A stretch of DNA of 63,184 nucleotides from Phycisphaerales bacterium. GTDB taxonomy: Bacteria > Planctomycetota > Phycisphaerae > Phycisphaerales > SM1A02. Positions within the stretch are counted from its first letter, which is position 1; each line of letters begins with the position of its first letter. Under the pieces are notes generated by a model that saw only the letters and a list, made by a program, of their open reading frames with translations, was not told the DNA's origin and made no database searches. Where the stretch lies: positions 1 through 63,184 of the forward strand of contig JASMMN010000024.1 of NCBI GenBank assembly GCA_030748155.1. Reading direction: 5' to 3'. The position numbers and the translations under genes were made by a program. This document shows positions 1 through 63,184 of the stretch, piece by piece.

Positions 1-267
1 ACCGACAACGACACCGAAGGCGAGATCTTCGAGGTCGTGCAGCCGATGAGCGAGCCGCCGCTGAAAAAGCACCCCGAGACCGGCGAGCCGGTTGTGCGGA
101 TCCCCTGCCTGCCCAACATCGCTGGCAAGTGGTCCGACATGAAGACCAAGTCATCGTTGAGCAACAAGAATCTTGATCGCCTCGGCTTTACCAAGTACGA
201 GCGAGCGGGTGATGGTAATTACGAGAAGAAGGCCGGCGGCGGCCCGGATGTCATTTCGGCGGATTGA
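1..267 (+). CDS. Hypothetical small protein, FmdB-type zinc-ribbon-like, 5' end cut by window edge
   Basis: Open in frame from nt 1 (TDNDTEGEIFEVVQPMSEPPLKKHPETGEPVVRI...), stop TGA at 265-267. The FEVxQxMSExPL core resembles FmdB/CxxC_CxxC_SSSS regulators, but the second Cys knuckle is replaced by HPETGEP. Confidence 0.4.
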   Translation, partial: TDNDTEGEIFEVVQPMSEPPLKKHPETGEPVVRIPCLPNIAGKWSDMKTKSSLSNKNLDRLGFTKYERAGDGNYEKKAGGGPDVISAD

Positions 268-297
268 GCGCACCCGCTCGCCCCCCCTTCGCCGGGA

Positions 298-358
298 GCT
301 CCCCCGCACGCGGGGGAGCGGACCGTCATATTTCTCCTCCCCCACGCAGTGGGGGAGG
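298..358. terminator. Two tandem GC-rich stem-loops between convergent genes (candidate bidirectional terminator or REP-like pair)
   Basis: GCTCCCCCGC-AC-GCGGGGGAGC (298-319) and CCTCCCCCAC-GCA-GTGGGGGAGG (336-358). Both have 10-bp perfect stems with related cores. They lie between the stops at 267 (+) and 406 (-). No clear U-tract follows either. Confidence 0.45.
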
Positions 359-405
359 TGCCGCGCAGCGGCGGAGGGGGTCGGCGAAGCGGCAGAGGGA
401 CCCCG

Positions 406-3291
406 CTACGTCGCCATCGCCGGAACATCCTCGGCCGTGGCCGCCTTCGCACGCATCGCCCGCCGGATCTTCTCTGGCGTGATCGGGAGATCCGTGATCC
501 ACACGCCGGTCGCGTTGGCGATGGCGTGGGCGACGGCGCCGAGGACCGGCAGGGTCGAGCCTTCTCCGATTTCCTTGGCGCCGAAGGGGCCGCGGGGTTC
601 GTAGGAATCGACGATGCCGCTGAAGATGTCCGGGGCGTCCTTGATGGTCATCATCAGATAGCCGTGCAGGTTCGGGTTGAGCAGTTTGCCCTGTTCGTCG
701 AACATCACATCTTCCATGATCGTTTCGCTTGCGCCCATGATGACGGCGCCTTCGACCTGCCCATGGACGGTCTTTGGATTGATGGCACGCCCGCAGTCGT
801 GGTAATCGGTGAACGTGTCGATCTTGACCTTGCCGGTCTCAAGATCGACGGTCACTTCGCAGACCGCGCTGCCGAAGGAATACGCGGGGCTGGTCCCGAC
901 CGTCGCGCCCTTGTAGTCGCCGCCGAGCCCGTCCGGCGGCTTGTAGGAACCTGTTCCGACGAGCGGGCCGTTTTCGTTGAAGTACTTCCTCGCAACTTCT
1001 TCCCAGGCGACACACCGCGATGGGTGGTCACGCACGAACATCTTGGCGTCCCTTGCTTCGATATCGTCCTCGTTGCAGTCGAGCAGGTCCGCTGCATACG
1101 GCCGCATGGCATCAACGACAGCAGTGCCGGCCCTCGAGACGGCGTGGCCGCCCATGAGCGTGATTCGTGAGGAATAGGCGCCAAGATCAATCGGCGAGAT
1201 GTCGCTGTCGCCGCTTCGCATCCGAATACGAGAGGCGGGAATGCCCAGCGACTCGGCGCACATCTGCACAAGCACGGTGTCGCTGCCCTGGCCGATTTCG
1301 GCCGCGCCGATCATCAGTACTGCAGCCGTGCCGTCTTCGGTGATCTTCACGACGGCGTTGGCATGTGGAAAGATCGATTTCTTCTGGAAGGGTTCGCGTC
1401 CCTTCTCGTGCGAGAGTTGCACTTGCCCTCGGTAGATGCAATAGCCAGCGCCCGAGACGAAGCCGCCGCATCCGATGCCGATGCCTTTGCCGGGTGGGAG
1501 TTTGCCGTATTTCTCGGCCCAACCGGAGCGTTCCTTGACTTCCCGAAGCGTCGCGCGGTATTCGCAACTGCCGATATCCAAGTCGTTGACGGTGATCGTT
1601 TCCGGATCCATCGCGTTGCGCTCGCGAATCTCAACGGGATCGATGCCGAGTTCGTCGGCGACCATGCCGAGCAGGCATTCGAAGGCGAATCGTGGCTGCG
1701 GAACGCCGTGTCCACGCATTGCGCCGCAGGCGGGCTTATTGGTCATCACCCGGTACCCATCGTATTGGTAGGCGGGCAGGTGATAGAGCGTTGGGATCAT
1801 GCTCCCGGCGTAGTAAGCCGTTGCGACGCCGAAACTCGAATAGGCGCCGCCGTCGAGGTGAATCTCGCTCTTGAAGGCCTTGATTTTGCCGTCGCGGTCG
1901 ACGCCGAGTTTGAACCGCATGTGCTGTTTGTGGCGTCCGCGGCCGTATTGGAACATCTCTTCGCGGGTGTAGACCATCTTTACGGGCCGGCCGATCTTCT
2001 GCGAGAGCAGGGCCGAGTTGATTTCCAGTGGCGAGGTCGCGGCCTTGCCGCCGAAGCCGCCGCCGACGGTGGGTCGGATCACGCGGATGCGCCCGAGCGG
2101 AATATTCAGCACGTGCGCCATCATGTACTGCACGTAGTGGGGGACCTGTGTCGAGGTGTAAAGAACCAGAGTTCCGTCAGGGTCCCAGGTGGAGATCGAG
2201 GCGTGTGGCTCCATCGGACACTGGTAGATGTGATTGCCGGTGAACACTTCCTCGCGAATCAGATGGGACTCGGCAAAGCCGGCCTCGATGTCACCGAAGA
2301 CCTGCTCGACGTGCGTATTGATGTTTCGCTCGAAGCGATCATTGACCAGCGGCGCGCCATCTGCAATTGCCGACATCGGATCGAGGACGGCGGGCAATTC
2401 TTCGTACTCGACTTCGATGAGCGATACCGCACGTTCGGCGGTTCGCTCGTCGATGGCGGCAACCGCCGCGACCGGATCACCCACGTGCCGCACCTTCTCC
2501 TTGGCGAGAACGTCTTCGTCGTAGCGGGCGGGCGACACGCCATGCTTGGTGTCGGTGACATCCTTGCCGGTCAGCACTGCGAGCACTCCCGGAAGTGCTT
2601 CCGCTTTGGATGTGTCGATCCTCTTGATCAGACCGTGGGCGAGCGGCGAGCCAAGAAGTTTTCCGTAGGCCATGTTCGGCAGGAAGATGTCGGCGGTGTA
2701 CTGAGCGCGACCGGTGACTTTGTCGGCCGCATCGACGCGGGGGATCGACACGCCGACGGTGTCGTTGTCCGGGGACTTCTCCGGGGCATCGCCGTCGTGA
2801 TGGTCATGCTTGGCGCAGGTGCCGTCGGAGCGGTAATTGCCGCACCGCTTGACCGATCGCAGGATGCCGGAGTAACCGGTACACCTGCACATGTTGCCAG
2901 AGAGCGATTCCTTGATGTCATCGTCGCTGGGGTCGGCGTTCCGCTCGATCAGCGCGGTCGCCGCGAGTGCCATTCCCGGGGTGCAGAAGCCGCACTGAAT
3001 GCCGCCCTCCTCCACGAATGATCGTTGCAGCGGCGTCAACACTCCGTCTTCCGCGAGTCCCTCGATGGTGGTGATCCTGCGTTCACCGACGGTGCCAGCG
3101 AGTGTCAGACAGGCGTTGACCGGCTGGCCGTCGAGCAGCACCGTGCAGGCCCCGCAGTCGCCCACATCGCAGCCACGTTTGGTTCCGGTGAGATGAATCT
3201 TGTCGCGGAGCACATCGAGCAGCGTGTCGTGAGCTTCGACTACGGCGATGTGGTTCTGGCCGTTGATGTTGAAAGCACGAGCGGTGGTCAT
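406..3291 (-). CDS. Xanthine dehydrogenase/aldehyde oxidoreductase-family molybdoenzyme, fused [2Fe-2S] plus molybdopterin-binding subunit (961 aa)
   Basis: The N-terminus carries both 2Fe-2S motifs (CDVGDCGACTV; CGFCTPG...CRCTGY). MoCo-domain motifs follow (PRVDAADKVTGRAQYTAD, GGGFGGK, AKEIGEGS). ATGA start/stop overlap with the upstream FAD subunit. Confidence 0.9.
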   Translation of the reverse strand: MTTARAFNINGQNHIAVVEAHDTLLDVLRDKIHLTGTKRGCDVGDCGACTVLLDGQPVNACLTLAGTVGERRITTIEGLAEDGVLTPLQRSFVEEGGIQCGFCTPGMALAATALIERNADPSDDDIKESLSGNMCRCTGYSGILRSVKRCGNYRSDGTCAKHDHHDGDAPEKSPDNDTVGVSIPRVDAADKVTGRAQYTADIFLPNMAYGKLLGSPLAHGLIKRIDTSKAEALPGVLAVLTGKDVTDTKHGVSPARYDEDVLAKEKVRHVGDPVAAVAAIDERTAERAVSLIEVEYEELPAVLDPMSAIADGAPLVNDRFERNINTHVEQVFGDIEAGFAESHLIREEVFTGNHIYQCPMEPHASISTWDPDGTLVLYTSTQVPHYVQYMMAHVLNIPLGRIRVIRPTVGGGFGGKAATSPLEINSALLSQKIGRPVKMVYTREEMFQYGRGRHKQHMRFKLGVDRDGKIKAFKSEIHLDGGAYSSFGVATAYYAGSMIPTLYHLPAYQYDGYRVMTNKPACGAMRGHGVPQPRFAFECLLGMVADELGIDPVEIRERNAMDPETITVNDLDIGSCEYRATLREVKERSGWAEKYGKLPPGKGIGIGCGGFVSGAGYCIYRGQVQLSHEKGREPFQKKSIFPHANAVVKITEDGTAAVLMIGAAEIGQGSDTVLVQMCAESLGIPASRIRMRSGDSDISPIDLGAYSSRITLMGGHAVSRAGTAVVDAMRPYAADLLDCNEDDIEARDAKMFVRDHPSRCVAWEEVARKYFNENGPLVGTGSYKPPDGLGGDYKGATVGTSPAYSFGSAVCEVTVDLETGKVKIDTFTDYHDCGRAINPKTVHGQVEGAVIMGASETIMEDVMFDEQGKLLNPNLHGYLMMTIKDAPDIFSGIVDSYEPRGPFGAKEIGEGSTLPVLGAVAHAIANATGVWITDLPITPEKIRRAMRAKAATAEDVPAMAT

Positions 3292-4166
3292 GTTGAGTCA
3301 CCACCGATTCGTTCGGTTGCAAGGCGGAGGGCTCGGGCCGTCAAGACGCCGGTGAGTTCGCGTCTGAATTCCGCAGAGCCGCGGATGTCGCTGATCGGGT
3401 CGGCCGCCGCCACGGCAGCGTCAGCGGCGTCGGCCCAGGCAGTTTCGTTTGGCGCTCGTCCGGCGAGTATGGCTGGGATGTTCTCAAGCAGCAGGGGTGT
3501 CGGGGCGACGGCGCCGATGGCGAGGGCGGCCTCCTGCATCATGCCCGCGTCGTCGAGTCGAATGCGGGCTGCCACAGAAGCAACGGCGATGGAGTTGCCT
3601 TCCCGAAGTGCAAACCGCTCATAGCTTGCGCCCGAGCGATTCGCTGGTGGCGGCACATGGATGCTGAGCAGAATCTCGTCGTGGCGACGGACGGTCGTTC
3701 GAGGCCCCGTGAAGAACTCGCATACGGGGATCCGCCGAACACCAGTGCGCGACCAGAGGTCTACGCCTCCGCCCAGCACCATGAGAATGGGCGGCAGGTC
3801 GGCGCAGGGCACCGCGCTGGCGAGATTCCCGCCAACGGTTGCCATGTTGCGAATCGCGGGGGCGGCCATGACCTGTGTGGCATCATGTATCGCCGCCCAA
3901 GTGCCGCTGAGGGGTGTTTCGTTCAGTCGTCCCACTGGCACGAGTGAGCCGATGGTCAGACCTTCCGAATCCGCAGTCAGTTGTCGTGCCTGATCGATGT
4001 TGGTAATGGAGATCAGGTGATCGGCTTCGGTTCGAGCCGTCTTGAGATCGACCAGCAGATCCGTGCCGCCCGCGACATACTCGGCTCGAGGACCGAGTTG
4101 CTCCATCAGCGCCGCCGCCGCCTCAAGCGTGTCGGCTTCGTGGAGTTGAATGTCGGGAAGGTACAC
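3288..4166 (-). CDS. FAD-binding medium subunit of the molybdoenzyme (CoxM type, 292 aa)
   Basis: Motifs GGTDLLVDLK, AIRNMATVGGNL and C-terminal DIRGSAEFRRELTGVL. GTG start with GGAGG 9 nt upstream. Only 2 Cys, so no extra Fe-S insertion. Confidence 0.85.
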   Translation of the reverse strand: MYLPDIQLHEADTLEAAAALMEQLGPRAEYVAGGTDLLVDLKTARTEADHLISITNIDQARQLTADSEGLTIGSLVPVGRLNETPLSGTWAAIHDATQVMAAPAIRNMATVGGNLASAVPCADLPPILMVLGGGVDLWSRTGVRRIPVCEFFTGPRTTVRRHDEILLSIHVPPPANRSGASYERFALREGNSIAVASVAARIRLDDAGMMQEAALAIGAVAPTPLLLENIPAILAGRAPNETAWADAADAAVAAADPISDIRGSAEFRRELTGVLTARALRLATERIGGDST

Positions 4167-4187
4167 GGTGAAGATCCTCCGTCGTGG

Positions 4188-4841
4188 TCAGGCGGTATGT
4201 CCGCAGATTCCGGCCAGGAACTGGTTGGTGATCTGGGACGCAACGACCTTGGGCGGGGTGGGGTGACTGGGGTTCCACCAGCGGTACAGCCAGTTGAGCG
4301 TCCCGAAGAGCGACATTGTGGCGACATGCAGGTCGAGCGGGTAGTCGGGTGGGTCGAGTTCGATGACGCTTGCGATGATCTCACGGGTCAGCCCGTAATA
4401 GGCGAGCCTGATCTCGCGGGCTTGGTCGTAGGTTTCGCCCCTGAGGGAGTCGAGTTCGTGCGAGCACACTTTGAGTTCTGCCATGTGCTCGGCGAAGTAG
4501 GTCACATGAGACCGGATCATGGTGCACAGGCGGTCGCGAGGCGATTCGACGCCGACCAACCACTCCCGTAGATTCGAGAGCAGCGAACTGAACACCCGGA
4601 ATTGCATGACGAAGAGAAGTTGCTCTTTCCGCTCGAAGTAGTGGTAGAGACCCGCGAGGCTCACATCCGCAGCCTTGGCAATCGTTCGCATCGAGGCCTT
4701 TTCATAGCCGTATTGGGCGAAAACGTGGGTGGCGGCCTGGAGGATGTGGTCCCGCCTCGCCTCAAAGGTGTCCCCAGCGGCTGGAGAGACAGATTCTGCG
4801 GGTGGCGATTCGAACAGTTGATCGGCTCGTTGAGAGTCCAT
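4188..4841 (-). CDS. TetR/AcrR-family transcriptional regulator
   Basis: HTH region ILQAATHVFAQYGYEKASMRTIAKAADVSLAGLYHYF. Start placed at the ATG preceded by GGAG (MDSQRADQ...). The ORF remains open up to a TTG at 4907, so the start is uncertain. Confidence 0.85.
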   Translation of the reverse strand: MDSQRADQLFESPPAESVSPAAGDTFEARRDHILQAATHVFAQYGYEKASMRTIAKAADVSLAGLYHYFERKEQLLFVMQFRVFSSLLSNLREWLVGVESPRDRLCTMIRSHVTYFAEHMAELKVCSHELDSLRGETYDQAREIRLAYYGLTREIIASVIELDPPDYPLDLHVATMSLFGTLNWLYRWWNPSHPTPPKVVASQITNQFLAGICGHTA

Positions 4842-4932
4842 GGGGGGCTCCAGGGGGTTGTCGTCGGCGGCAGTACATATCATCCACCCTGTAACCAGTT
4901 CCGTCAAGGCCGAAATATAGCTTCTATTGGGG

Positions 4933-4962
4933 TTGACAGGGCCATTGGCGCTCCCCGATAAT
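4933..4962 (+). promoter_or_regulatory. Sigma-70-like promoter for the catabolic operon
   Basis: TTGACA (4933-4938), 18-nt spacer, GATAAT (4957-4962). It lies about 105 nt upstream of the 5068 start in the TetR/operon divergent region. Confidence 0.5.
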
Positions 4963-4994
4963 CAGGATGGTCAAGTCTTGATACTTGCGAGAGC

Positions 4995-5012
4995 CGAACG
5001 GACGTTCGAACG
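4995..5012. promoter_or_regulatory. Palindromic candidate operator (TetR site) in the operon leader
   Basis: CGAACG-GA-CGTTCG (4995-5008) overlaps the perfect 10-bp palindrome CGTTCGAACG (5003-5012). It sits between the predicted -10 and the first start codon. Confidence 0.4.
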
Positions 5013-5067
5013 AAATAACGGGTGTTTTTCTGGCCCGTTTCCACCCCCAGCCTTGGAGTACACCGAG

Positions 5068-6204
5068 ATGAGCATGTTTCCCACGAGAACCACCGAGTCA
5101 TTTGACTTCCAGGAAGTCGACTACCAGAAGGACGGCTTCGTCGCCCGGATCACCATCAACCGGCCGTTCAACTTCAATGCCTACAGCACACCAGCCCTCG
5201 AAGAATTGGCAACGGCCTTTCAGGATGCCTCGTGGGACGACGGCATTGCCGTCGTGGTCTTCACCGGAACCGGCCACAAATCTTTCTGCACGGGCGGTGA
5301 TGTGAAGGAGTACCAGTCCTGCTACACGCAGAAGCCACGCGACTATTGGAAATACATGTGTCGTTTCAAGGCCTATATCGAAGCGATCACGAACTGCGCC
5401 AAGCCCGTCATCGCCCGCCTCAATGGCATGGCGGTTGGCGGTGGCAACGAGAGCCAACTTGCTTGCGACATCGGCGTCATGGGCGAACACGCCTTCATCG
5501 CGCAGGTCGGCACGAGCGTGGGGTCGGTCGCCTGTGGCGGCTCGACGCAGTGGCTGCCCATTACGGTCGGCGACCGTACCGCGCGGGGCATTCTCTTCCT
5601 GAATCAGCGATACGCCGCCTTTACCAGCCTGTCGATGGGGCTGGTCAACAGCGTAGTGCCGACGGTCAAGGGACCCGACGGCGAATTCATCACGAAGTTC
5701 AGCGGCGACCGCACCTGTCTGGCCGACTGGAACACCGATCCCTGGGATACGCCCTTCGAGAATCGGGCTACCGCTGGCGACATCAAGAAGGCCCTCAAGG
5801 GTGAGGACGGCTACTCGATCGACTTCTCCCTCATGGATGAGGTGATCGACGACCTGTGCGACCAGATCGTCAACAAGTTCTTTGAATGCACCCGCTACAC
5901 CAAGGCGCAGGTCAACTATTGGAAGGACTCCGCGTGGCACGCCACCGTCGGCCATGCCCGCGACTGGCTCGCCACGCACTACACCAGCCTCGAGCCCTAC
6001 GAAGGCATGACTGCCTTTGTCGAGAAACGCAAGACCGACTACATCGGCATGCGGAAGCGGGCCGCCGATCCGAATGGTTCGAGCGAGTTTCTTTGGGGCC
6101 CATACGCGCAAGAGTGCGGTGAGTGCGGCGCGAAGGGCATGCCCTCGCAGTTCGAACACTGTGGCAGGTGCGGGGCGGTGTTGGCCGTCGCGATGACAAC
6201 CTGA
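5068..6204 (+). CDS. Crotonase-superfamily enzyme of the MenB/BadI/Oah clade (378 aa) with C-terminal zinc ribbon; candidate ring-opening acyl-CoA hydrolase
   Basis: Motifs RITINRPFNFNAYST, FCTGGDVKEY, NGMAVGGGNE and IAQVGTSVGSVACGGS (MenB-type GxxVGS loop). C-terminal CGEC-N11-CGRC. GGAG lies 9 nt upstream of the ATG at 5068. Confidence 0.8.
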   Translation: MSMFPTRTTESFDFQEVDYQKDGFVARITINRPFNFNAYSTPALEELATAFQDASWDDGIAVVVFTGTGHKSFCTGGDVKEYQSCYTQKPRDYWKYMCRFKAYIEAITNCAKPVIARLNGMAVGGGNESQLACDIGVMGEHAFIAQVGTSVGSVACGGSTQWLPITVGDRTARGILFLNQRYAAFTSLSMGLVNSVVPTVKGPDGEFITKFSGDRTCLADWNTDPWDTPFENRATAGDIKKALKGEDGYSIDFSLMDEVIDDLCDQIVNKFFECTRYTKAQVNYWKDSAWHATVGHARDWLATHYTSLEPYEGMTAFVEKRKTDYIGMRKRAADPNGSSEFLWGPYAQECGECGAKGMPSQFEHCGRCGAVLAVAMTT

Positions 6205-6234
6205 CGGGCTAGCGGCATCACAGGGAGACGCATC

Positions 6235-6978
6235 GTGGCACACACACCGAGACGAGCATTGGTAACGGGGGGGTCGAGCGGCATCGGCCGCGCGATTGCC
6301 CAGTCGCTCGCCCGTGACGGTTGCGATGTGGGCATCCTGTACCTCGGCGATCTCACAGATGCGGACTCCGTGAGATCGTGCATCGAATCACTCGGTCGCA
6401 AGACGTGGGTGAAGGTGGCTGATGTCTCCGACGCTCAGCAGGCCACAGCCGCGGTGGAGGATTGCGCTGGCGAACTCGGTGGGCTTGAAGTTCTCGTCAA
6501 CAACGCCGGCATCTGCCGCGATCAGGTGATTTGGAACATGACCGATGCGGAGTGGCAGGATGTCATCGACATCGATCTTACCGGCGTCTTCAACATGTCT
6601 CGGGCGGCGGCGCCCATCATGCGGGCAGCGAAGTATGGATCCATCGTCAACATCTCCAGCATCAACGGCATGCGGGGCAAGTTTGGCCAGACCAATTACG
6701 CCGCGGCAAAGGCTGGCGTCATCGGATTCACCAAGGCGCTCGCCAAGGAGTTGGCACGATCCACCGTGACCGTGAACGCCGTCGCGCCGGGGATGATCCA
6801 CACGCCCATTCTCGATGCCATGCCTCCCGAGGCAATCAAGAAGGCGACCGAGGAGATTCTTGTTGGCCGCATCGGCACACCCGAGGACATCGCCGAAGCA
6901 GTGCGCTTCCTGTGCAGCGAAGGAGCGAGATTCATCACCGGCGAAGTGCTTCGGGTAGACGGCGGGCAGTACATCTGA
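6235..6978 (+). CDS. Short-chain dehydrogenase/reductase (FabG/BadH-like hydroxy/oxo-acyl reductase)
   Basis: Motifs TGGSSGIGRAIA, NNAG and YAAAKAG (YxxxK). GTG start with GGGAG 7 nt upstream. Confidence 0.88.
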   Translation: MAHTPRRALVTGGSSGIGRAIAQSLARDGCDVGILYLGDLTDADSVRSCIESLGRKTWVKVADVSDAQQATAAVEDCAGELGGLEVLVNNAGICRDQVIWNMTDAEWQDVIDIDLTGVFNMSRAAAPIMRAAKYGSIVNISSINGMRGKFGQTNYAAAKAGVIGFTKALAKELARSTVTVNAVAPGMIHTPILDAMPPEAIKKATEEILVGRIGTPEDIAEAVRFLCSEGARFITGEVLRVDGGQYI

Positions 6979-6992
6979 AAAGGAATGATGAC

Positions 6993-7763
6993 ATGACCGA
7001 CTACCAGTACTTCACATGCGACATTTCCGGCGGCGTCGCCACGGTCACCATGAACCTTCCCCCGTTGAACGTCATGGACAACCCCATGATGTCCGAGTTC
7101 AACACACTCCTTGACACTCTGGTCGTGGACGACACCTTGTCTGCAATCGTGATTGCCGCCGAAGGCAAGGCCTTCAGCGCGGGCGTGGACGTCGCGGATC
7201 ACACGGCTGAGAAGGTTCGTGACATGATCGAGCAATTCCACGGCATCTTTCGCCGGCTCGCGTCCACCGATGCGCTCACCATTGCGGCCGTTCAGGGTGC
7301 TGCGCTCGGTGGCGGATGCGAACTCGCCTGCTTCTGTGACATCGTGCTCGCCTCGGAGCGGGCCAAGTTCGGGCAGCCTGAAGTTCATGTTGGCGTCTTC
7401 CCACCGGTCGCTGCGGTGGTGTTGCCGTCTCGCATTGGGCTCGGCAAGGCGATCGAACTCGTGTCGCTCGGCGGCACGATTTCGGCGACCGAAGCCCATC
7501 GGATCGGCCTCGTCAGTCAGTTGTACGTCGCAGACGAGTTCGACGACCAGGTTGCGGCCTACGTTGAGGACATCCGGGGCCTCTCCCGTCCCGTTGTGCG
7601 GATGGCAAAGCGGGTCACCATGGCCGGGCAGCGAGCGGACATGCTCAATCGGCTCGACGAGGCCGAAAAAATCTACCTCGATGAATTGATGCAACTCCAC
7701 GACGCTCACGAGGGCATCGCGGCATTCATGGAGAAACGAACCCCCGAGTGGAGCCACGCCTGA
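6993..7763 (+). CDS. Enoyl-CoA hydratase/isomerase family (256 aa); candidate dienoyl/enoyl-CoA hydratase (Dch/BadK-like)
   Basis: Motifs KAFSAGVDVADH, GAALGGGCELACFCD and FGQPEVHVGVFPP. ATG at 6993 with AAGGA 9 nt upstream. The longer track ORF (6531) runs through the SDR gene. Confidence 0.85.
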   Translation: MTDYQYFTCDISGGVATVTMNLPPLNVMDNPMMSEFNTLLDTLVVDDTLSAIVIAAEGKAFSAGVDVADHTAEKVRDMIEQFHGIFRRLASTDALTIAAVQGAALGGGCELACFCDIVLASERAKFGQPEVHVGVFPPVAAVVLPSRIGLGKAIELVSLGGTISATEAHRIGLVSQLYVADEFDDQVAAYVEDIRGLSRPVVRMAKRVTMAGQRADMLNRLDEAEKIYLDELMQLHDAHEGIAAFMEKRTPEWSHA

Positions 7764-7801
7764 GGGCCGGTTGGGCACATCAGAGAAAAGAGAACCGAAC
7801 G

Positions 7802-8824
7802 ATGAAAGCAGCAGTATTCCACGGCGCCGACGAAGGCGTGAGAGTCGAAGAGATCCCGGTCCCGCATGTTGGACGGGACGAGGTGCTCGTCAAGGTTGCC
7901 GCCTGCGGGGCCTGCCATACCGACCTGCACTACATCGAGCACGGCGTGCCGACCTTCAAGGATCCGCCGCTCGTGCTTGGCCACGAAGCGTCCGGTATCG
8001 TCGAGGAAGTCGGCATCGATGTCGAACATCTCACCGCGGGGCAGAGGGTGCTTATCCCCGCGGTACTCACCTGCGGCAAGTGCAGGTTTTGCCGCATGGG
8101 CAAGGAGAATATCTGTGCCGACATGAAGATGCTCGGCAACCACTTTGACGGCGCCTACGCCGAGTATGTCTGCGTACCCGCCAAGGATGTGCTTGATCTG
8201 CCCGAGTCGATTCCGCTTGCCGAGGCATCGATCATTGCCGACGCGTTATCGACGCCGTACCACGCCGTCAAGAACCGAGCACAGGTGCGGGCCGGCGATT
8301 CCGTGGCCGTCTTCGGATGTGGAGGTGTTGGCATCAACGCAGTGCAACTTGCGGCCGCGGCTGGCGCTTACGTGATTGCGGTCGATATCAGTGAGCAGAA
8401 ACTTGAGTGGGCCAAGGAACTCGGCGCGGCGCAGACCATCAACGCCCACCAGGTCGATCGGGTGAGCAAGGCAATCAAGAAGATGACTGGTGGTGGTGTC
8501 GATATCGCCATGGAGGTGATCGGTAACCCGCGGACGATCGAAGAAGCGTTCGAGAGCGTGCGAATCGGTGGTCGGATGTGCGTCGTCGGGTACACGCATG
8601 AGAAGATCAACATTGTCGCCGGGAAGATCATGTTCAAGGAGATGGAAATTGTCGGTTCGCTCGGATGTCCTCCGGGCGAGTATGTCCCGCTCATTCGCAT
8701 GGTCGAGGCCGGGAAGATCGATGTATCTCGCCTCGTGACGCACCGGTTCTCACTTGACGATATTCAGGGCGCATTCGATGTAATGAAGGACGGCTGCTCC
8801 CTGCGGTCGATCGTAATTCCGTGA
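7802..8824 (+). CDS. Zinc-dependent alcohol dehydrogenase family (340 aa); candidate 6-hydroxycyclohex-1-ene-1-carbonyl-CoA dehydrogenase (Had-like)
   Basis: Motifs CGACHTD, GHEASGIVEEVG, structural-Zn CGKCRFCRMGKENIC and FGCGGVGINAVQ. Confidence 0.85.
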   Translation: MKAAVFHGADEGVRVEEIPVPHVGRDEVLVKVAACGACHTDLHYIEHGVPTFKDPPLVLGHEASGIVEEVGIDVEHLTAGQRVLIPAVLTCGKCRFCRMGKENICADMKMLGNHFDGAYAEYVCVPAKDVLDLPESIPLAEASIIADALSTPYHAVKNRAQVRAGDSVAVFGCGGVGINAVQLAAAAGAYVIAVDISEQKLEWAKELGAAQTINAHQVDRVSKAIKKMTGGGVDIAMEVIGNPRTIEEAFESVRIGGRMCVVGYTHEKINIVAGKIMFKEMEIVGSLGCPPGEYVPLIRMVEAGKIDVSRLVTHRFSLDDIQGAFDVMKDGCSLRSIVIP

Positions 8825-10065
8825 GCGACACGACGGTGAAGCGAGTACCCATCGAGTCGCAGAAGCGCCTTCGAGGCCTGATGCGTGACTACTTCGTTGA
8901 CCTCGACGCGGCGGCCAAAGACACTGATCGCCGCGTTGCGTGGTGTACATCGGTCGGTCCTACGGAGATTTTGACCGCTTTCGGCTTCGACGTGTTCTTC
9001 CCGGAGAACCACGGCGCCCTCCTCGGCACGCGGAAAGTCAGCCACAAGTTGATCCCCCGGGCGGTGGGGGCGGGGTACTGCCCCGAGACCTGCTCTTACA
9101 TGAACAGCGATATCGGCGCATCGCTCAACGGTTGGAGTCCGCTGCAGGACATCTACGGCATAGACGGACCGCCCGCGCCCGATCTGCTCGTGTACAACAC
9201 GAACCAGTGCCGGGAAGTGCAGGACTGGTTCAAGTTCTTCTCGACACGGCACGACGCTTCAATTCTGGGGGTGCGGCCACCGCTGTATCTCGGAGAAGTC
9301 ACCGACGAGCATGTCACCTTCGTGAAGGGGCAACTTCGGGAACTCATCGGTGCGATCGAGCGTCAGTTCGAATTGAAACTCGATGAGGCGAAACTCGAAG
9401 AGTCCGTCGCGAAGTCGAGCAAGGCCTGTTCGCTTTGGCGGGAAGTACTCGAAACGGCCCGCCAGAGACCGGCCCCACTGAGTTTCTGGGACGGCTTGAT
9501 CCTGATGGCGCCGGTGATACTGATGCGTGGAAGCGATATGGCCATCGACTTCTACGAAGAAATGCTTGCTGAGATGAATCAACGGCTTGCTGGTGGCGTC
9601 GGAGCCGTGCCTGATGAGCGGTTTCGCATCTACTGGGAAGGGATGCCCGTCTGGCCCCGGATACGGGAACTTTCCGAGAAGTTCTTTGATCTTCGGGCGG
9701 TCGTGGCGGCGAGCACCTATTGCAACTCGTGGGCCTTCGCCGACTTCGAGGGCGGCGACCCGCTTGAGTGGATGGCGCGGACGAGTCTGGAGATCTTCAT
9801 CAATCGCGATGAGGTGTACAAGCAGCAGTTCCTGTCCGAGAGGTTCGACGAGTTTTCGATTGACGGCGCCATCTTCCACAACGCCCGGACATGCCCGAAC
9901 AACACCAACTCACGCTTTGGAATGGCTCAGCGGGTTCGTGAGGAGATGGGCCTGCCGGTTCTTGTCCTCGATGGAGACCTGACCGATATCCGGTTCTTTT
10001 CAACCTCGCAGTCGATGACCAATATCGAAGCCTTCATTGAGCAGTTGGAGGCACATCGCTCATGA
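8821..10065 (+). CDS. 2-hydroxyacyl-CoA dehydratase / benzoyl-CoA reductase (HgdAB/BcrBC) family protein, single copy (414 aa)
   Basis: Family-typical RRVAWCTSVGPTEILTAFGFDVFFPENHGA. Seven Cys including C42, C87, C91 and C130. GTGA overlap with the upstream stop. Confidence 0.8.
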   Translation: MSDTTVKRVPIESQKRLRGLMRDYFVDLDAAAKDTDRRVAWCTSVGPTEILTAFGFDVFFPENHGALLGTRKVSHKLIPRAVGAGYCPETCSYMNSDIGASLNGWSPLQDIYGIDGPPAPDLLVYNTNQCREVQDWFKFFSTRHDASILGVRPPLYLGEVTDEHVTFVKGQLRELIGAIERQFELKLDEAKLEESVAKSSKACSLWREVLETARQRPAPLSFWDGLILMAPVILMRGSDMAIDFYEEMLAEMNQRLAGGVGAVPDERFRIYWEGMPVWPRIRELSEKFFDLRAVVAASTYCNSWAFADFEGGDPLEWMARTSLEIFINRDEVYKQQFLSERFDEFSIDGAIFHNARTCPNNTNSRFGMAQRVREEMGLPVLVLDGDLTDIRFFSTSQSMTNIEAFIEQLEAHRS

Positions 10066-10910
10066 GTGGCGTCCTCTTTGCCGGTATCGACGCTGGATCC
10101 TCGGCCACCAAGTGTGTCATCATCGACGATAGGGGCACATTGGTCGGGAAGAGCGTCGTGTCCTCGGGGTTCAGTTACGAGGATGCGGCCAAGACGGTGC
10201 TGGGTGAGGCGTTGGCCGAAGCCGGGAGGTCGTCTGGGGACATCGAGGCATGTATCTCCACTGGGTACGGACGGGAGTGGGTTCCAGATGCCGGGCGGAA
10301 GATCACCGAGATCACCTGTCATGCCCGTGGCGCTCTTGAGTGGTATCCGCAGGTCCGCAACATCATCGACATCGGTGGTCAGGACACCAAAGTCATCCGT
10401 CTCGACACGACCGGGCAGATTTCTGACTACCGCATGAACGCCAAGTGCGCCGCAGGAACCGGAACATTTCTCGAATCCATCGCCGTGAAACTCGGCATGA
10501 CGCTTGGCGAACTCGACGAGCTCGCCGCGCAATCTGAGAAGCACGCCGTCATCAACAGTTATTGCACCGTCTTCGCCGGGACCGAGGTGCTTGAGTGCAT
10601 CAAGGCCGGCGAGGATCCCAAGGACATTGCCCGCGGATTGTTTCACTCGATCGCCTCGCGGCTCTTTGAGATGATTGTCTCCCATGACGGACCGGTGGCG
10701 GCGACGGGCGGCGTGGTGGCGCACTGCGGCTCGATGCGTGTGGCGCTCAACGAAGTGCTTGATGATGAAGTGTTGCTTCCGCCGCTTCCTCAGTTCGCGG
10801 GGGCCTTTGGTGCCGCGCTCATGGCCAACTCCGGCCACGCACACGAGCCGTTTGGCGAGCGGCCTGCGCCGCCGTGCCGGTTCTCGACCGAAGGGAGCGG
10901 CCAATGTTGA
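10062..10910 (+). CDS. BcrAD/BadFG/HgdC-family ATPase (electron-activating component, 282 aa)
   Basis: Motifs GIDAGSSATKCVII, DIGGQDTKVI, NAKCAAGTG and YCTVFAGTE (cluster-ligand Cys positions). ATGA overlap with the upstream gene. Confidence 0.88.
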   Translation: MSGVLFAGIDAGSSATKCVIIDDRGTLVGKSVVSSGFSYEDAAKTVLGEALAEAGRSSGDIEACISTGYGREWVPDAGRKITEITCHARGALEWYPQVRNIIDIGGQDTKVIRLDTTGQISDYRMNAKCAAGTGTFLESIAVKLGMTLGELDELAAQSEKHAVINSYCTVFAGTEVLECIKAGEDPKDIARGLFHSIASRLFEMIVSHDGPVAATGGVVAHCGSMRVALNEVLDDEVLLPPLPQFAGAFGAALMANSGHAHEPFGERPAPPCRFSTEGSGQC

Positions 10911-13900
10911 CCGCTGGACATCTCGGAATTCATCCGCCGGGCGCCCTCGGTGTCGGGTTATTCATGCATACGCATGCCGAGTGTCTTGTAGGCATGAGCC
11001 GGGACGGCATTACCGAGACTCTCAAGGAGGCTGGCCGCCTCAGACTTGAACACAACGGGCAGCAGCAGATCGTGTCCATCCATGGCCGCATCTTTGCGAA
11101 CTTGCTTGAGGCGGATGCAAAGAAGTTGCTCCCAGAACTCCTGCTGGTGTGCTGCAATCCGAATCAACTCGGGGCATTCACCGGCGAAGTAACGAGTTTT
11201 CTTGAGAACTCCGCCAGGCGAGGACTGCTGGATTCGCCGGAGCAGGTACGGCATCACATGCCGATTCTGCTCATCCTGCCCAACGGTGTGCTCTTCGAAT
11301 CGACATTCAGCGAATTCCAATCCCAACTCAATGAAGCCATTCTCATGGAACGGCTTCCAGGGGTCACCTCGGAAGTGCAGGCAGCTATCGAGGCTCGCCT
11401 GGTGCGGGGAATATCGCTTCAGGCAGGTGGGCGGCGCGGCAGCGGGGCGGACACGACCTATCTGCTTGAGAAGAAGGGCTCAATTGTGTTTGCTGGTGGC
11501 GGCGGCTTCGAACAAGAGCGAATCGCGGCGATCTTGCAGGCGCACGATTACCCGTTCACGCATGTACCGAACGCGCCGGCAACCCGCATTGAATTCGATA
11601 AGGCGATGATCTCGATTGTTCTCAATGTCGGTGGGCTCATTCACATGGTGAAACCAAGTGGCGAGTGCATCGATCTGCGAATGGGCGATCTCTGCCTTGA
11701 CCAGAGCAAAGACGAGTTTGTTCGGCAGATCACCAGGGGCGTATTCGACGTCGGGCAGGCCAACGGCGCCTACTCGTCTGACGCAACATGGGAAGAAGTG
11801 TGGGAAGGCCATCGCAATATCATTCTGAAGAACAAGGGACATGTGACCAGTTCGGTCAAGGATCTGTCCGTTGCGCTCAATCGCGGGCTGGAGAGCGTCA
11901 GACTGTTCACAAACGAAGAATGGATTCTCGAGCCGCTACAGCGGTACGCGGCGCTGGCGGATATGCAGGCCGAGCGATCGATGTTCAAGGATCTGGCGAA
12001 GCAAGTGCAGCAAGCAATAGCCCGAGCCATCAAGTTTCGGAGGGATAAGGGCGGAACCGGGGCAAGGAGCAGAACAATGAAACTGAGTGCGCAGCGCAAT
12101 ATCAACATCGATCTCTACGAGGACGGTGATGAGCACCTCGTGTTGGTGGGTACGTTCCACGACAGCGAGCATCTCATTCGCCTTGAAGTTGCCATCGGCG
12201 TGGCCGAACGCCAAATACTGCGAAGCGATCTGAACATGATCCGTTCACCATTCCCCGTGTGCAGCGAGGTCAAGAAAACAGCCCAACTCCTCGTAGGACT
12301 TCGAGTCGAGCGAGGAGTGCTGAACGAAATCAGTTCCCGGCTTGGTGGCCGGACAGGGTGCTCACACATCAGAGAGATCGCGGCATCGATCATGCAGTTC
12401 GTCGCGACCTATCTCGTGCGGATCCGCGCCGGCGTGCGGCCCTTCGATGAAGAGTTCCTCCGCGAGCCGGCGGAAGACCGGTTTCGCCTGACACGAGAGT
12501 TGTTGCAGGACAGTTGTCTTGCGTACTCGCAACTTACCGTCCATGGACTCGATGAGAAGGTCGGCATTCGACGACTCGGCGAAGAGCATGGATCGCCCAT
12601 CGAACTTGGGGAGCATGAAGTTTCCATAGGCGCGCTTATCCGGGACAGGATGTCTCGGTGGGGCGACCGCGTATGTACGAAGTACCGCATACTCGACGAT
12701 GAGCATGAACTTACCTGGAGCGAACTGGGAGACCGTGTTGCCCGGGTGGGTCGCCATTTGATCGAACGCGACATTCACCCCGGCGATCGCATTGGCATCG
12801 TGTCCGAAAACCGGGTCGAAATGCTGATTCTGGAACTGGCCATTCAGTCGATCGGTGCCGTCACTGTTCCTGTGTTTGCCGGATATCCGGCCCCACTGGT
12901 CGGATATGTCATTCGCCACGCGAAGCCGCGAATGCTGGTCGTATCGAACATGAAGCAACTCGACAAGATTGATCGCAACCAACATGACTTCATTGAATCC
13001 TGTTTCTGCATGGATGCCTCCGACGCCACACGCGCTTGGGGCGCGGTGGACTTCGATTCCTTACTCGCCGATGGCGGCGCGCCGCTGCTCGAATACGAGA
13101 GCCGAGTCAATGCGGTTGGTGCCGACGATCGTTGTCTCGTGATGTACACATCCGGCACGACCGGTCCGCCCAAGGGCGTATGTCTGAGCCACCGAAACCT
13201 CATTTCTCAGCAGAAGGCGATCTCGCTTATCTGGGACATCAATCAGGAAGACGTGATGTTGAGTTTCCTGCCGTGGCACCACAGTTTCGGTGGGCTGTTT
13301 GAGCGATTCATGGCCCTCTACAACGGGTGCATCCTCGGACTCGACGACTCTCGTGGCCGTGACATGGACCGGTTGCTCGACAATTGGCGGCGGTATCGAC
13401 CGACGATCTTCTTCAGCGTTCCACGGGTACATCAATCACTGCTCAACCGCTGCCGGGAATGCGAAACTTGCGAACAGAGTGTGTTTCATGATCGCCTGCG
13501 ACTCGTTTTCACCGCCGGTGCGCCGCTGCCGGCCGGAGTCGAGCAGGCATACCGTGACTACGACATTCAGGTGTTCGAAGGCTTTGGACTGACCGAGACA
13601 TCGCCTTGCGTCACCGTCACAAGTCCTGATCGCAAGTGGCGAAGCGGATACGTGGGATTTCCGATTCCCGGCGTCACGATCCGCATCGACAGCGATCAGG
13701 AGATCCTGGTGCAGGGTCCCAATGTAATGGCCGGATACCTTGACGACGAGGACGCTACGAGCCGGGTGATTGATGATCACGGCTGGTTCCACACCGGCGA
13801 TCTTGGTGAATTCACTCGCGATGGACTTCGCATTCTGGGCCGCAAGGACGGTGCGTTCAAGTTGACAACCGGCGAGAAAGTGCATCCGCAACGGGTTGAG

Positions 13901-14317
13901 AACACGCTGGTCAACGAATCACCGTTCATCGGCACCGCGGTGGTCATCGGAAGTGGGAAGGACTTTGTGTCAACGCTCGTCTTCCCCGACTTCGTGCGGC
14001 TTCAAGCGTGGGCGGATGAGCAGGGCATTCATGCGCCGGTCTTGACGGACGACCCCACCATCCGTGAACTCTTCGCGACCGAAGTCGCCCGGATCAACCC
14101 GCGGATCGAGGTCAAGTATCAACGCGTCAGGCGCGTGATTCTGGCGGGGCGAGACCCCTCCCTGGAACGTGGAGAACTCACCCCGTCCGCCAAGATCGTC
14201 CGGCAGCGGGTCTTCGATTCATTCAAGCATGAGATCGAAGAACTCTTCAAATCGGTTCCTTCCGACCTTGTCATCGAGATACAAGAACAACCATTGGCAG
14301 GAGAATTGGCGCGATGA
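10904..14317 (+). CDS. Tri-domain fusion: PanE/ApbA-like oxidoreductase, DUF2889-like middle domain, and AMP-forming acyl-CoA synthetase (FAA1/FadD type)
   Basis: N-terminal LGIHPPGALGVGL, LLLVCCNPNQL, ILLILPNGV and FDKAMISIVLN are ketopantoate-reductase-like. The middle region has GRTGCSHIREI. The C-terminus has YTSGTTGPPKGV, GFGLTETS, WFHTGDLG and LTPSAKIVRQ. ATG at 10904 follows GGGAG and overlaps the upstream stop (ATGTTGA). Confidence 0.8.
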   Translation: MLTAGHLGIHPPGALGVGLFMHTHAECLVGMSRDGITETLKEAGRLRLEHNGQQQIVSIHGRIFANLLEADAKKLLPELLLVCCNPNQLGAFTGEVTSFLENSARRGLLDSPEQVRHHMPILLILPNGVLFESTFSEFQSQLNEAILMERLPGVTSEVQAAIEARLVRGISLQAGGRRGSGADTTYLLEKKGSIVFAGGGGFEQERIAAILQAHDYPFTHVPNAPATRIEFDKAMISIVLNVGGLIHMVKPSGECIDLRMGDLCLDQSKDEFVRQITRGVFDVGQANGAYSSDATWEEVWEGHRNIILKNKGHVTSSVKDLSVALNRGLESVRLFTNEEWILEPLQRYAALADMQAERSMFKDLAKQVQQAIARAIKFRRDKGGTGARSRTMKLSAQRNINIDLYEDGDEHLVLVGTFHDSEHLIRLEVAIGVAERQILRSDLNMIRSPFPVCSEVKKTAQLLVGLRVERGVLNEISSRLGGRTGCSHIREIAASIMQFVATYLVRIRAGVRPFDEEFLREPAEDRFRLTRELLQDSCLAYSQLTVHGLDEKVGIRRLGEEHGSPIELGEHEVSIGALIRDRMSRWGDRVCTKYRILDDEHELTWSELGDRVARVGRHLIERDIHPGDRIGIVSENRVEMLILELAIQSIGAVTVPVFAGYPAPLVGYVIRHAKPRMLVVSNMKQLDKIDRNQHDFIESCFCMDASDATRAWGAVDFDSLLADGGAPLLEYESRVNAVGADDRCLVMYTSGTTGPPKGVCLSHRNLISQQKAISLIWDINQEDVMLSFLPWHHSFGGLFERFMALYNGCILGLDDSRGRDMDRLLDNWRRYRPTIFFSVPRVHQSLLNRCRECETCEQSVFHDRLRLVFTAGAPLPAGVEQAYRDYDIQVFEGFGLTETSPCVTVTSPDRKWRSGYVGFPIPGVTIRIDSDQEILVQGPNVMAGYLDDEDATSRVIDDHGWFHTGDLGEFTRDGLRILGRKDGAFKLTTGEKVHPQRVENTLVNESPFIGTAVVIGSGKDFVSTLVFPDFVRLQAWADEQGIHAPVLTDDPTIRELFATEVARINPRIEVKYQRVRRVILAGRDPSLERGELTPSAKIVRQRVFDSFKHEIEELFKSVPSDLVIEIQEQPLAGELAR

Positions 14318-15564
14318 GCGACCAGAGTGCAACATCATTCGTGATTTCAGGTGCCGCCCGGACACCCGTGGGCGTCAAGTGTGGCACGCTCAGCAACTTC
14401 TCTCCCGAGGATCTCGCGGTCGCGGCGGCGAACGAATCTATCAAGCGGGCAGGAATAGAGCGTGATTGCATTGATGCCACCTACGGCGGCAACGTCTATC
14501 AATTCACCTCGCCGGGGGGGCAGGACATCTACTTCCCCCGCAATGTCGCACTTCGGTGCGAGTTACCGATCGATACACCATCGCTGCTCGTACAGCGAAT
14601 CTGTGGTTCAGGTTTCCAGACGGTCGTCAGCGCCATGCATCAGATTGCCATGCCGTCGTCAATGGACGACACAAGAGTTGCGCTGTGCTTTGGTGCCGAG
14701 ACCATGTCCAGGGCTCCGCGGCTGAGCAGGGCGCCCCGCCTCTCCGGAGCGGATTTCTGGGAGTTCGGATCCAACGGTACGCTCGAGGACACGATTCTCG
14801 CCGGTCTCAACCATGACCTCTTCAATACCAGCATGATGGTGACAGCCGATGAATACGGCCACAGCGTCGGTGTGACGCGCGAAGAGTGCGACGCCTTCGC
14901 CGAAGAGTCGCACCGCCGGGCGAGAGAAGCCAACCGAGTGAGTCACCTCAACGGCGGCGATGCCCTCCGGGGCATGTTTGCCTTCGAGGCGGACAACCTC
15001 GCGGGCGAGCCGGTCTACCTCGCCCACGATGAGTGTGTGCGTGACACAACTCTTGACGAACTGTCCAGGCTTCCAGGGTTTACACCCAACGACCTTGTTT
15101 CGCCGGGCAACGCCAGCGAGATCAGCGATGCCGCCGCTTCGCTCGTGGTAGCGGATCGGTCGCGAGCCGAGAAACTTGGGATTTCGACTCGTTTTGAAAT
15201 CGTCGGCTATGGCATCGCGGGCGTCGAGCCGCGGTTGATGGGTCGCGGGCCAGTACCCGCCATTCACCGTGCGCTTGAGCGAACGGGCCTGTCGATAGAT
15301 GACATCGGCCTGTGGGAAGTCAACGAGGCTTTCGCCGCCCAAGCAGTTGGTGTGCAGAAGGAACTCGGACTCGACAGCGAGAGACTCAACGTGAACGGCG
15401 GCGCGGTTGCTATCGGGCATCCCCTTGCGGCGACCGGGGCGAGACTACTTGTGGACCTCATGTACGAAATGGAACGACGAGGAGAGCCGCTCGGATGCGC
15501 CTCTGCCTGCATCGGTGGCGGCCAAGGCATCGCCGTCATCATCAGAGACACCCAACGGGATTGA
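14314..15564 (+). CDS. Acetyl-CoA C-acyltransferase (thiolase)
   Basis: Motifs RICGSGFQ (active-site Cys), [20 protein letters not shown] and [13 protein letters not shown] overlap with the upstream gene. Confidence 0.9.
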
Positions 15565-15588
15565 GTCCCAATTACACGGAAGCAAGCC

Positions 15589-25675: not shown

Positions 25676-25783
25676 ATGACAGGACACCACAATGCCCCCG
25701 CCGCCGTCTTCGCCCCCTGGCTGCTCCGCATGCCCATGCTCCTCATCAGCGTTCTGTATTTCTTCGCATGGCGTGCGAAGTGA
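25676..25783 (+). CDS. Possible 35-aa single-TM peptide (MTGHHNAPAAVFAPWLLRMPMLLISVLYFFAWRAK)
   Basis: ATG at 25676 with GGAGA about 10 nt upstream, TGA at 25781. It overlaps, in another frame, the implausible Pro/Ser/Cys-rich N-terminal extension of track ORF 25692. Too short for the ORF track. Confidence 0.25.
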   Translation: MTGHHNAPAAVFAPWLLRMPMLLISVLYFFAWRAK

Positions 25784-62779: not shown

Positions 62780-62826
62780 CGGGGTCCCTCTGCCGCTTCG
62801 CCGACCCCCTCCGCCGCTGCGCGGCA

Positions 62827-62887
62827 CCTCCCCCACTGCGTGGGGGAGGAGAAATATGACGGTCCGCTCCCCCGCGTGCGGGGGAGC
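62827..62887. terminator. Two tandem GC-rich stem-loops (mirror copy)
   Basis: Exact mirror of 298..358. Confidence 0.45.
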
Positions 62888-62917
62888 TCCCGGCGAAGGG
62901 GGGGCGAGCGGGTGCGC

Positions 62918-63184
62918 TCAATCCGCCGAAATGACATCCGGGCCGCCGCCGGCCTTCTTCTCGTAATTACCATCACCCGCTCGCTCGTACTTGGTAAAGC
63001 CGAGGCGATCAAGATTCTTGTTGCTCAACGATGACTTGGTCTTCATGTCGGACCACTTGCCAGCGATGTTGGGCAGGCAGGGGATCCGCACAACCGGCTC
63101 GCCGGTCTCGGGGTGCTTTTTCAGCGGCGGCTCGCTCATCGGCTGCACGACCTCGAAGATCTCGCCTTCGGTGTCGTTGTCGGT
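62918..63184 (-). CDS. FmdB-like small protein, truncated by window edge (mirror copy)
   Basis: Exact mirror of 1..267. Confidence 0.4.
   Translation of the reverse strand, partial: TDNDTEGEIFEVVQPMSEPPLKKHPETGEPVVRIPCLPNIAGKWSDMKTKSSLSNKNLDRLGFTKYERAGDGNYEKKAGGGPDVISAD

Follow-up and report, generated by a model that had tools for sequence, protein, structure and literature searches.

A bacterial contig that equals its own reverse complement raises a simple question: is the palindrome a structure of the genome, or was it made somewhere on the way to the assembly? The window, by which we mean the whole stretch of 63,184 nt analyzed here, is such a contig. We conclude that its palindrome is very probably an assembly or library fold-back artefact at a natural 30-base terminator hairpin, and not genome structure. 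The real information in the window is almost certainly 31.6 kb of single-copy bacterial chromosome, the other half being phantom.

Geometry of the palindrome

Comparison of the whole window with its own reverse complement gives identity at 63,184/63,184 positions, with 0 mismatches and no indels, and the base composition is symmetric, with 12,650 each of A and T and 18,942 each of G and C. The axis falls between positions 31592 and 31593, with ...GCGATCGTCAA on its left and TTGACGATCGC... on its right; there is no spacer, and neither a spacer nor an adapter remnant was found at the axis in the window sequence. A preliminary description of this DNA had claimed a perfect zero-spacer palindrome over the entire window and proposed this alignment as the check, and the claim holds at every position. 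The mirrored ORF coordinates quoted there are an arithmetic consequence of the relation 63185-x. That such a palindrome arose by chance (about 4^-31592) is out of the question.

1 to 31592, plus strand: arm A, almost certainly the sole independent information, chromosomal DNA (Pfam scans, single-copy contigs)
31593 to 63184, minus strand: arm B, almost certainly a phantom reverse complement of arm A (0 mismatches, unitig simulation)

Both ends of the window are the same arbitrary genomic point, and a second (outer) junction is absent.

Independent contigs across the axis

Is the locus arranged in this way in other assemblies? On independent contigs from JGI, Logan and NCBI (L001, L002 and L006-L013) the arm occurs once, with 99.4-99.97% identity. 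One of these, L002 (Isosphaeraceae MAG contig CAZJKE010000016.1), matches window positions 26418-31607 at 99.6% identity, and then continues for 10 kb that are foreign to the window; when we searched the window for this native downstream DNA (L002 positions 5191-15176), no part of it was found. Across the axis, L002 is matched collinearly by L003, a second Isosphaeraceae MAG contig from a separate study, and by the metagenome contig L014 (PVBE010112066.1). These three independent assemblies read through the axis in single copy, 5-10 kb onward, into unrelated conserved housekeeping genes that keep a common order. Next to the axis, the real genome has a convergent AhpC/TSA-thioredoxin-TPR gene; this AhpC/TSA-TPR gene, a CAAX protease and a 2-oxoacid dehydrogenase operon make up the downstream neighbourhood that the window lacks. 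Contig L001 (Logan SRR25584963) differs from the window by 2 SNPs over 5 kb; it has the native ...CCACCAC and stops 2 nt beyond the 30-nt palindrome described below. All independent contigs found that reach the axis have the native single-copy arrangement (L001 for the first 2 nt only).

At the other end, JGI contig Ga0373647_0000519 has the same genes and extends beyond the outer end of the window; judged from sequence, that outer end is not a molecule end. The arm itself is a mosaic of strain paths, which is typical for short-read metagenome graphs.

The preliminary description had favoured a fold-back chimera, with only 31.6 kb of independent information and doubled gene counts, and had suggested asking whether related genomes or MAGs hold the locus once. 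They do, and the three contigs that cross the axis into other DNA strongly support its reading.

The same contigs bear on a biological alternative raised in that description, a linear replicon with a covalently closed hairpin telomere. Phage N15 and Borrelia have such ends, and reading around one of them would give a zero-spacer palindrome like that of the window. But native DNA continues collinearly past the axis in L002, L003 and L014, for 5-10 kb of conserved housekeeping genes in the same order, and the axis itself carries a terminator hairpin between convergent genes. Nor was a protelomerase or ResT found among the ORFs scanned on the arm (about 27 genes), all of which are metabolic or regulatory. 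The read-through contigs refute a telomere, and together with the lack of a protelomerase on the arm they lead us to reject it; we give it next to no probability.

A native palindrome at the axis

What is special about the position at which the window turns back? The axis is the exact centre of a short palindrome that is present in the native sequence.

31578 to 31607, no strand: native 30-nt perfect zero-spacer palindrome, GGTGGCGATCGTCAA followed directly by TTGACGATCGCCACC, the probable fold-back start site
31608 to 31610, plus strand: first departure of the window from native sequence (comparison with L001, L002, L003 and L014)

No other zero-spacer palindrome in the native reconstruction (41.6 kb) has arms of more than 7 nt; in a control of 100 shuffles the maximum arm was 11. 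A terminator scan matched it as a hairpin with a 13-bp stem and an AATT loop, the T-run TCCTTTTTGC being on the minus strand, and its RNA fold has -46 kcal/mol (z = -4.7). Thus in the real genome the 30-nt palindrome is an intrinsic-terminator-like hairpin separating two convergent genes. It is intact in L001 and L002, and L003 and L014 have an imperfect form. An exact-match scan for it in JGI metagenome contigs and IMG/VR viral contigs gave no match, so the window record and its fold-back junction are absent from both collections.

Because the innermost 30 nt are palindromic natively too, the non-native right arm begins at 31608, or no later than 31610. At 31608 the window has T, like L003 and L014, and L001 and L002 have A; at 31610 the window has C, and the two contigs read there, L002 and L003, have G. 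From 31608 on, arm B replaces the true downstream sequence.

The uniqueness of this palindrome also matters for the sequencing artefacts that the preliminary description had listed, a missed SMRTbell adapter and a nanopore template-to-complement read-through that survived assembly. Long reads that fold back in this way occur on both platforms and can at times be near-perfectly palindromic (PMC12870357). Their junctions, however, form at effectively random fragment ends, and here the axis falls on the one such native palindrome in 41.6 kb. Moreover, a long read makes its errors independently in each of its two passes, whereas not one mismatch separates the arms over 31.6 kb; adapter remnant and spacer are absent, and the strain-path mosaic of the arm is that of a short-read metagenome graph. 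We reject both forms of long-read origin on the position of the axis and the identity of the arms, and regard them as very improbable.

Genes of the arm

Pfam scans describe arm A as ordinary bacterial chromosomal DNA with about 27 genes; tRNA and Rfam scans found no tRNA gene and no Rfam family on it. The families named by Pfam include the following.

1 to 31592: XDH-family Mo enzyme resembling 4-hydroxybenzoyl-CoA reductase; XdhC; MobA
1 to 31592: TetR regulator, STAS protein, ECF sigma factor
1 to 31592: enoyl-CoA hydratases, SDR, ADH, thiolase, 3-hydroxyacyl-CoA dehydrogenase, acyl-CoA dehydrogenase
1 to 31592: HGD-D dehydratase/reductase subunits, two sets, with BcrAD-type ATPases
1 to 31592: DUF2889-AMP-ligase fusion, sugar transferase, RlmL-like methyltransferase
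1 to 31592: saccharopine dehydrogenase; GFO/IDH/MocA oxidoreductase

The gene at the axis and its mirror copy show what the fold-back does to annotation.

30529 to 31596, plus strand: GFO/IDH/MocA-family oxidoreductase gene, 355 aa, complete (Pfam, L001, L002)
31589 to 32656, minus strand: mirror copy of the same gene, an example of the duplicated phantom genes (arm symmetry)

The Pfam C-terminal domain of this product is matched up to position 217/218. An identical 355-aa product is called on the Logan contig L001, and L002 encodes it at 100% identity. Since the native palindrome, in its left arm and centre, contains the last five codons and the TGA, the gene is not truncated by the fold-back; truncation at the axis is rejected, gene and stop codon both being native.

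Exact-protein look-ups with the longest-ORF starts of the saccharopine dehydrogenase and the XDH large subunit gave no match. For the saccharopine dehydrogenase this comes from the choice of start codon, the Logan product having 402 aa and not 414 aa.

Rebuilding the window from single-copy sequence

In de Bruijn graphs, k-mers with a self-complementary (k-1)-suffix create inverted loops and palindromic unitigs (Rahman & Medvedev 2022, PMC9528984). SPAdes and MEGAHIT emit palindromic unitigs unsplit (PMC9528984), and 81 whole-contig palindromes of M. bovis have been judged assembly errors (PMC9455707).

We performed a unitig walk on a plain de Bruijn graph, using the canonical k-mers of the single-copy native positions 1-31607. 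When the native continuation is left out, the walk rebuilds all 63,184 nt of the window exactly at k = 21, 29 and 31. Arm A alone yields arm B! At k = 33 or 55 the window is not rebuilt. With full coverage, the walk stops inside the palindrome or at its right edge, at 31597 (k = 21), 31605 (k = 29) and 31607 (k = 31), and the last of these stops is an A/T branch at 31608.

From this we infer how an assembler may have produced the window. At k <=31, the (k-1)-mer that closes the palindrome on the right would recur, reverse-complemented, at its left edge, and because it is present at both edges the graph can leave it in two ways, forward into the genuine sequence (A at 31608) or back along the opposite strand of the path already walked (T at 31608). 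Were the genuine branch absent or clipped, the inverted loop would be the sole exit; a local gap in coverage could do this, for example, as could a strain branch of low coverage or the carry-over of low-k contigs into later rounds of k. The assembler would then retrace the same nodes to the same dead end, and the outcome would be a contig of exactly 2x the arm length, with zero mismatches and zero spacer.

Four features of such an in silico artefact are found here: a self-reverse-complementary contig, a native palindromic word at the axis, a single-copy arm, and regeneration by the walk. Like the inverted-loop contigs already reported (PMC9528984, PMC9455707), the window has neither spacer nor mismatches, its axis falls on a native self-reverse-complementary (k-1)-mer, its two ends are one genomic point, single-copy sequence suffices to reproduce it, and its gene annotation is duplicated. 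It differs in being a large example, 2 x 31.6 kb. We consider an origin inside a de Bruijn-graph assembler the likeliest route, with about two-thirds of the probability, by steps of the kind just proposed, and this route is the known artefact of the inverted loop or palindromic unitig. The fold-back chimera of the preliminary description is strongly supported, but the routes that it listed omitted the likeliest one.

The palindrome that nucleates the loop has just 30 nt, so that either k <=31 is needed, or low-k carry-over together with loss of the native branch. Most current pipelines end at k well above 31, where any read resolves a 30-nt palindrome, and the in silico route thus requires an extra condition. 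This could be a coverage gap or clipped native branch, or the carry-over of low-k contigs. A further option would be a 34-nt palindrome, if the source strain has T at 31608 like L003.

A possible fold-back in the library

Alternatively, the fold-back may have happened in the tube. A single-stranded 3′ end could snap back on the palindrome during MDA or end repair and prime synthesis; real fold-back molecules would then enter the library, and the assembler would follow the chimeric reads. An MDA-type or hairpin-primed chimera of this kind is plausible as a second route, if on the unlikely side, and we count its probability inside that of the fold-back artefact. The junction divides a strong native hairpin in the middle, the expected site for snap-back priming, and chimeric reads generated by library preparation are documented both for inverted repeats and for palindromes (PMC10908179). 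This route would also account for a junction that survives a large final k, where the in silico walk fails. On the other hand, such reads are normally a small minority, pruned where the native path is covered, and the unitig walk rebuilds the contig without any chimeric reads. The window resembles these chimeras in a junction centred on a native hairpin-forming palindrome; they are known as low-frequency reads (PMC10908179), whereas its junction is a full contig.

A real inverted duplication?

Finally, the palindrome could be a real inverted duplication, which the preliminary description had named as a very recent event; it would have formed in vivo in a sub-population of the bacteria. After a break near the terminator palindrome and resection, a strand would fold on the 30-bp palindrome and be extended. 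The centre of the window is exactly that of a short native palindrome, and a short-read assembler would collapse the arms of a real duplication into an identical contig. There are precedents: E. coli lacking SbcCD and RecA forms palindrome-centred inverted chromosome duplications (Darmon et al. 2010, PMC3315005), which have the same large inverted geometry around a short pre-existing palindrome, and palindrome-centred duplications are reported for mammalian cells as well (Tanaka 2002).

The E. coli cases, however, were seen only where both SbcCD and RecA are lost, and at a 246-bp palindrome (PMC3315005), whereas the locus of the window is unrearranged in all the independent assemblies: L002, L003, L014, and L001 for its first 2 nt, are native and single-copy. 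No outer junction is seen, both contig ends being one arbitrary point, and a perfect palindrome of 63 kb without a spacer should be very unstable. The artefact, by contrast, requires native sequence alone. We judge a real duplication improbable, given that the contigs reaching the axis show the native arrangement.

Implications

Were the duplication real, a sub-population of an Isosphaeraceae-like planctomycete would carry 63 kb or more of inverted duplication with no spacer, produced in vivo when a strand snapped back at a terminator hairpin of 30 bp. Such cells would have to tolerate giant perfect palindromes, for instance through weak SbcCD-type processing.

As a fold-back artefact, which is how we read the window, the case has a value that is practical and not biological. 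The contig should be halved prior to gene counting, binning, and completeness or contamination estimates, and also before any call of copy number or of an 'inverted terminal repeat'; otherwise each gene is counted twice. The signature of the artefact can be checked: a self-reverse-complementary contig whose axis falls on a short native palindrome that independent assemblies cross. On this reading, a terminator hairpin of the ordinary kind, with 30 bp, suffices to trigger it.

Symmetry of the contig

When the window is compared with its own reverse complement over its full length, 63,184 of 63,184 positions are identical, with no mismatch, indel or spacer. The axis falls between 31592 and 31593 (...GGTGGCGATCGTCAA|TTGACGATCGCCACC...). 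The preliminary description of the whole window as a perfect zero-spacer palindrome is thus borne out, and so are the twin ORFs that it noted at mirrored coordinates, which follow arithmetically from self-complementarity. A palindrome of this kind cannot have a chance origin. The observation is true of a feature that is without biological reality; we are highly confident that the palindrome is an artefact, whether it arose during assembly or by snap-back in vitro.

Gene content of one arm

Pfam scans of long ORFs gave the following gene identities in arm A (1–31592), of which the other arm is the exact reverse complement.

Predicted genes in arm A
406–4166, minus strand: XDH-family molybdenum enzyme and FAD subunit
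Arm A: TetR regulator
Arm A: enoyl-CoA hydratases, SDR, zinc ADH
Arm A: HGD-D subunits with BcrAD/BadFG-type ATPases, two sets
Arm A: DUF2889–AMP-ligase fusion, 1,137–1,147 aa
Arm A: thiolase, 3-hydroxyacyl-CoA dehydrogenase, acyl-CoA dehydrogenase
Arm A: XdhC, MobA, sugar transferase, RlmL-like methyltransferase
Arm A: STAS protein, ECF sigma factor, saccharopine dehydrogenase
30529–31596, plus strand: GFO/IDH/MocA oxidoreductase, adjoining the axis

Judged by family, the predicted genes show an ordinary chromosomal set. These scans reported no phage, plasmid, transposase or telomere-resolvase genes in the arm, and tRNA and Rfam scans found neither tRNA genes nor Rfam families there. The GFO/IDH/MocA gene is complete, with its Pfam C-terminal domain matched up to position 217/218 and its TGA stop (31594–31596) at the axis.

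Region 406–25440 forms a large cluster predicted from gene families to act in anaerobic aromatic or alicyclic acyl-CoA metabolism. Among its members are three genes each for HGD-D subunits and BcrAD/BadFG ATPases, the DUF2889–AMP-ligase fusion, and a Mo enzyme similar to 4-hydroxybenzoyl-CoA reductase, accompanied by the maturation genes for XdhC and MobA.

Independent contigs across the axis

With the axis gene as query, a GTDB scan gave two MAG contigs that come from different SRA studies and are both labelled uncultured Isosphaeraceae. One of them, L002 (CAZJKE010000016.1, 39,265 nt), matches window 26418–31607 at 99.6% identity and continues beyond 31607 for 10 kb more without similarity to the window. 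The other, L003 (CAZJIB010000019.1), has about 91% identity and stays collinear with L002 through the axis, over a stretch of >10 kb, and L014 (PVBE010112066.1), a metagenome contig from another project, spans the axis and then runs 5.4 kb into the same genes. These native genes are a convergent AhpC/TSA–thioredoxin–TPR gene, a CAAX protease, 2-oxoacid dehydrogenase E1alpha/E1beta/E2 and an ABC-2 permease. A hairpin telomere of a linear replicon, one of the alternatives raised earlier, is refuted, as these three contigs read through the axis and the arm has no resolvase gene.

The native genome already contains a perfect 30-nt zero-spacer palindrome at 31578–31607 (L002 5161–5190), between the 3′ ends of two convergent genes. 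No other zero-spacer palindrome in a 41.6-kb native reconstruction has arms >7 nt; the longest palindrome arm in 100 shuffles was 11 nt. The lineage of L003 and L014 keeps it in imperfect form. Because the axis is the centre of the region's sole long native palindrome, the fold-back begins exactly at the single spot there that allows a strand, or a path in a graph, to reverse onto itself. The Logan contig L001 (SRR25584963), with 2 SNPs in 5 kb relative to the window, reads ...CCACCAC, as in the native sequence, and breaks off 2 nt past the palindrome. At position 31608 the window has T where L001 and L002 have A, and at 31610 it differs from L002 and L003.

A terminator scan predicts an intrinsic-terminator-like site here for the minus-strand gene (13-bp stem, AATT loop, then TCCTTTTTGC), and the predicted RNA fold has −46 kcal/mol for 96 nt (z = −4.7). 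The palindrome would be a terminator-like hairpin for the convergent AhpC/TSA–TPR gene, while its left arm and centre also code the last five codons and stop of the plus-strand GFO/IDH/MocA gene, whose Lys-Lys codons (AAAAAG) encode the terminator T-run.

Could the duplication be real? Inverted duplications centred on a palindrome have precedent in vivo, but that precedent required a 246-bp palindrome and the loss of SbcCD and RecA (PMC3315005). The locus is unrearranged in every independent assembly found. We consider an in vivo origin very improbable.

How the contig may have formed

We made canonical k-mer sets from single-copy native sequence and followed a plain unitig walk. Given native 1–31607 only (no k-mers past the palindrome), the walk at k = 21, 29 and 31 turns at the palindrome and goes back over the reverse strand as far as the same dead end, so that its sequence is the whole window, 63,184 nt, without a difference; at k = 33 and 55 it stops at 31607. 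Given full native coverage, it halts at 31597, 31605 and 31607 for k = 21, 29 and 31 (within the palindrome or at its right edge; for k = 31, at an A/T branch at 31608), and follows the native path at k = 33 and 55. The end of L001, a Logan (k = 31) contig, at the palindrome fits the simulated k = 31 halt. If the source strain had T at 31608, like L003, the palindrome in its genome would lengthen to 34 nt, and walks with k as high as 35 could turn back in the same way.

An assembly origin, the most probable route, would require loss or clipping of the native branch in the graph together with a low k, either used outright or carried over, with the path then turning at the palindrome and running back along the reverse strand. 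The simulated behaviour is that of the inverted-loop palindromic unitigs analysed by Rahman and Medvedev, who showed them to be emitted unsplit by SPAdes and MEGAHIT (PMC9528984). Palindromes that span a whole contig have also been described as errors of assembly, with gene counts inflated as a result (PMC9455707).

A hairpin-primed chimera made in vitro, by MDA or end repair, would produce an identical junction, and palindromic sequences are documented sites of such chimeras (PMC10908179); we regard this form of the artefact as possible, if rather unlikely. Long-read fold-back, by a missed adapter or nanopore read-through, had also been proposed and is disfavoured: it places junctions at arbitrary fragment ends and leaves arms with independent errors (PMC12870357), whereas the window has identical arms and turns on the unique native palindrome.

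Outer ends and mosaic structure

The JGI contig Ga0373647_0000519 (36,021 nt) has window 2800–25474 at essentially 100% identity and extends well past window position 1, so both window ends are the same arbitrary contig break and not molecule ends. The two differ by 6 mismatches over 4314–25474, with none seen from ~3100 to 16204. From 390 to ~2800, within the XDH-family large-subunit gene, identity is only about 90%, and before 390 the window is unrelated to the JGI contig, which has ETF and Fe-S oxidoreductase genes there. The divergence of 1–2800 may stem from a strain that has recombined or from a chimeric path between strains in the assembly.

At 26255–26271 the window is without 1.67 kb present in L003, which takes in the end of the sugar-transferase gene, a gene for a PglD-like acetyltransferase and the greater part of a DegT aminotransferase gene. 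A microhomology of roughly 12 nt (GCCGCAACGCCA) marks the joint, by which ORF 25692–26621 becomes a Bac_transf–DegT fusion. The JGI contig L008 ends exactly at 26271, and among the contigs found no independent near-identical one spans 26271–26418. The joint would be a deletion particular to the strain or else another chimeric join. Within 1.1 kb lie the ends of five independent contigs (L011 at 25474, L010 at 25489, L008 at 26271, L002 at 26418, L001 at 26590), a pattern that suggests variation between strains on which assemblies break.

Use of the contig

Half of the contig is to be discarded, and the true continuation past the axis taken from contigs such as L002; the contig is of use only as a clean diagnostic case. 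Apart from the window, no near-identical sequence joins the acyl-CoA catabolic cluster to the Isosphaeraceae-labelled part. The cluster's host appears to be a planctomycete (Isosphaeraceae) lineage, an assignment that depends on the putative joint at ~26265. If that assignment holds, the pathway would have an unusual host in the Isosphaeraceae.
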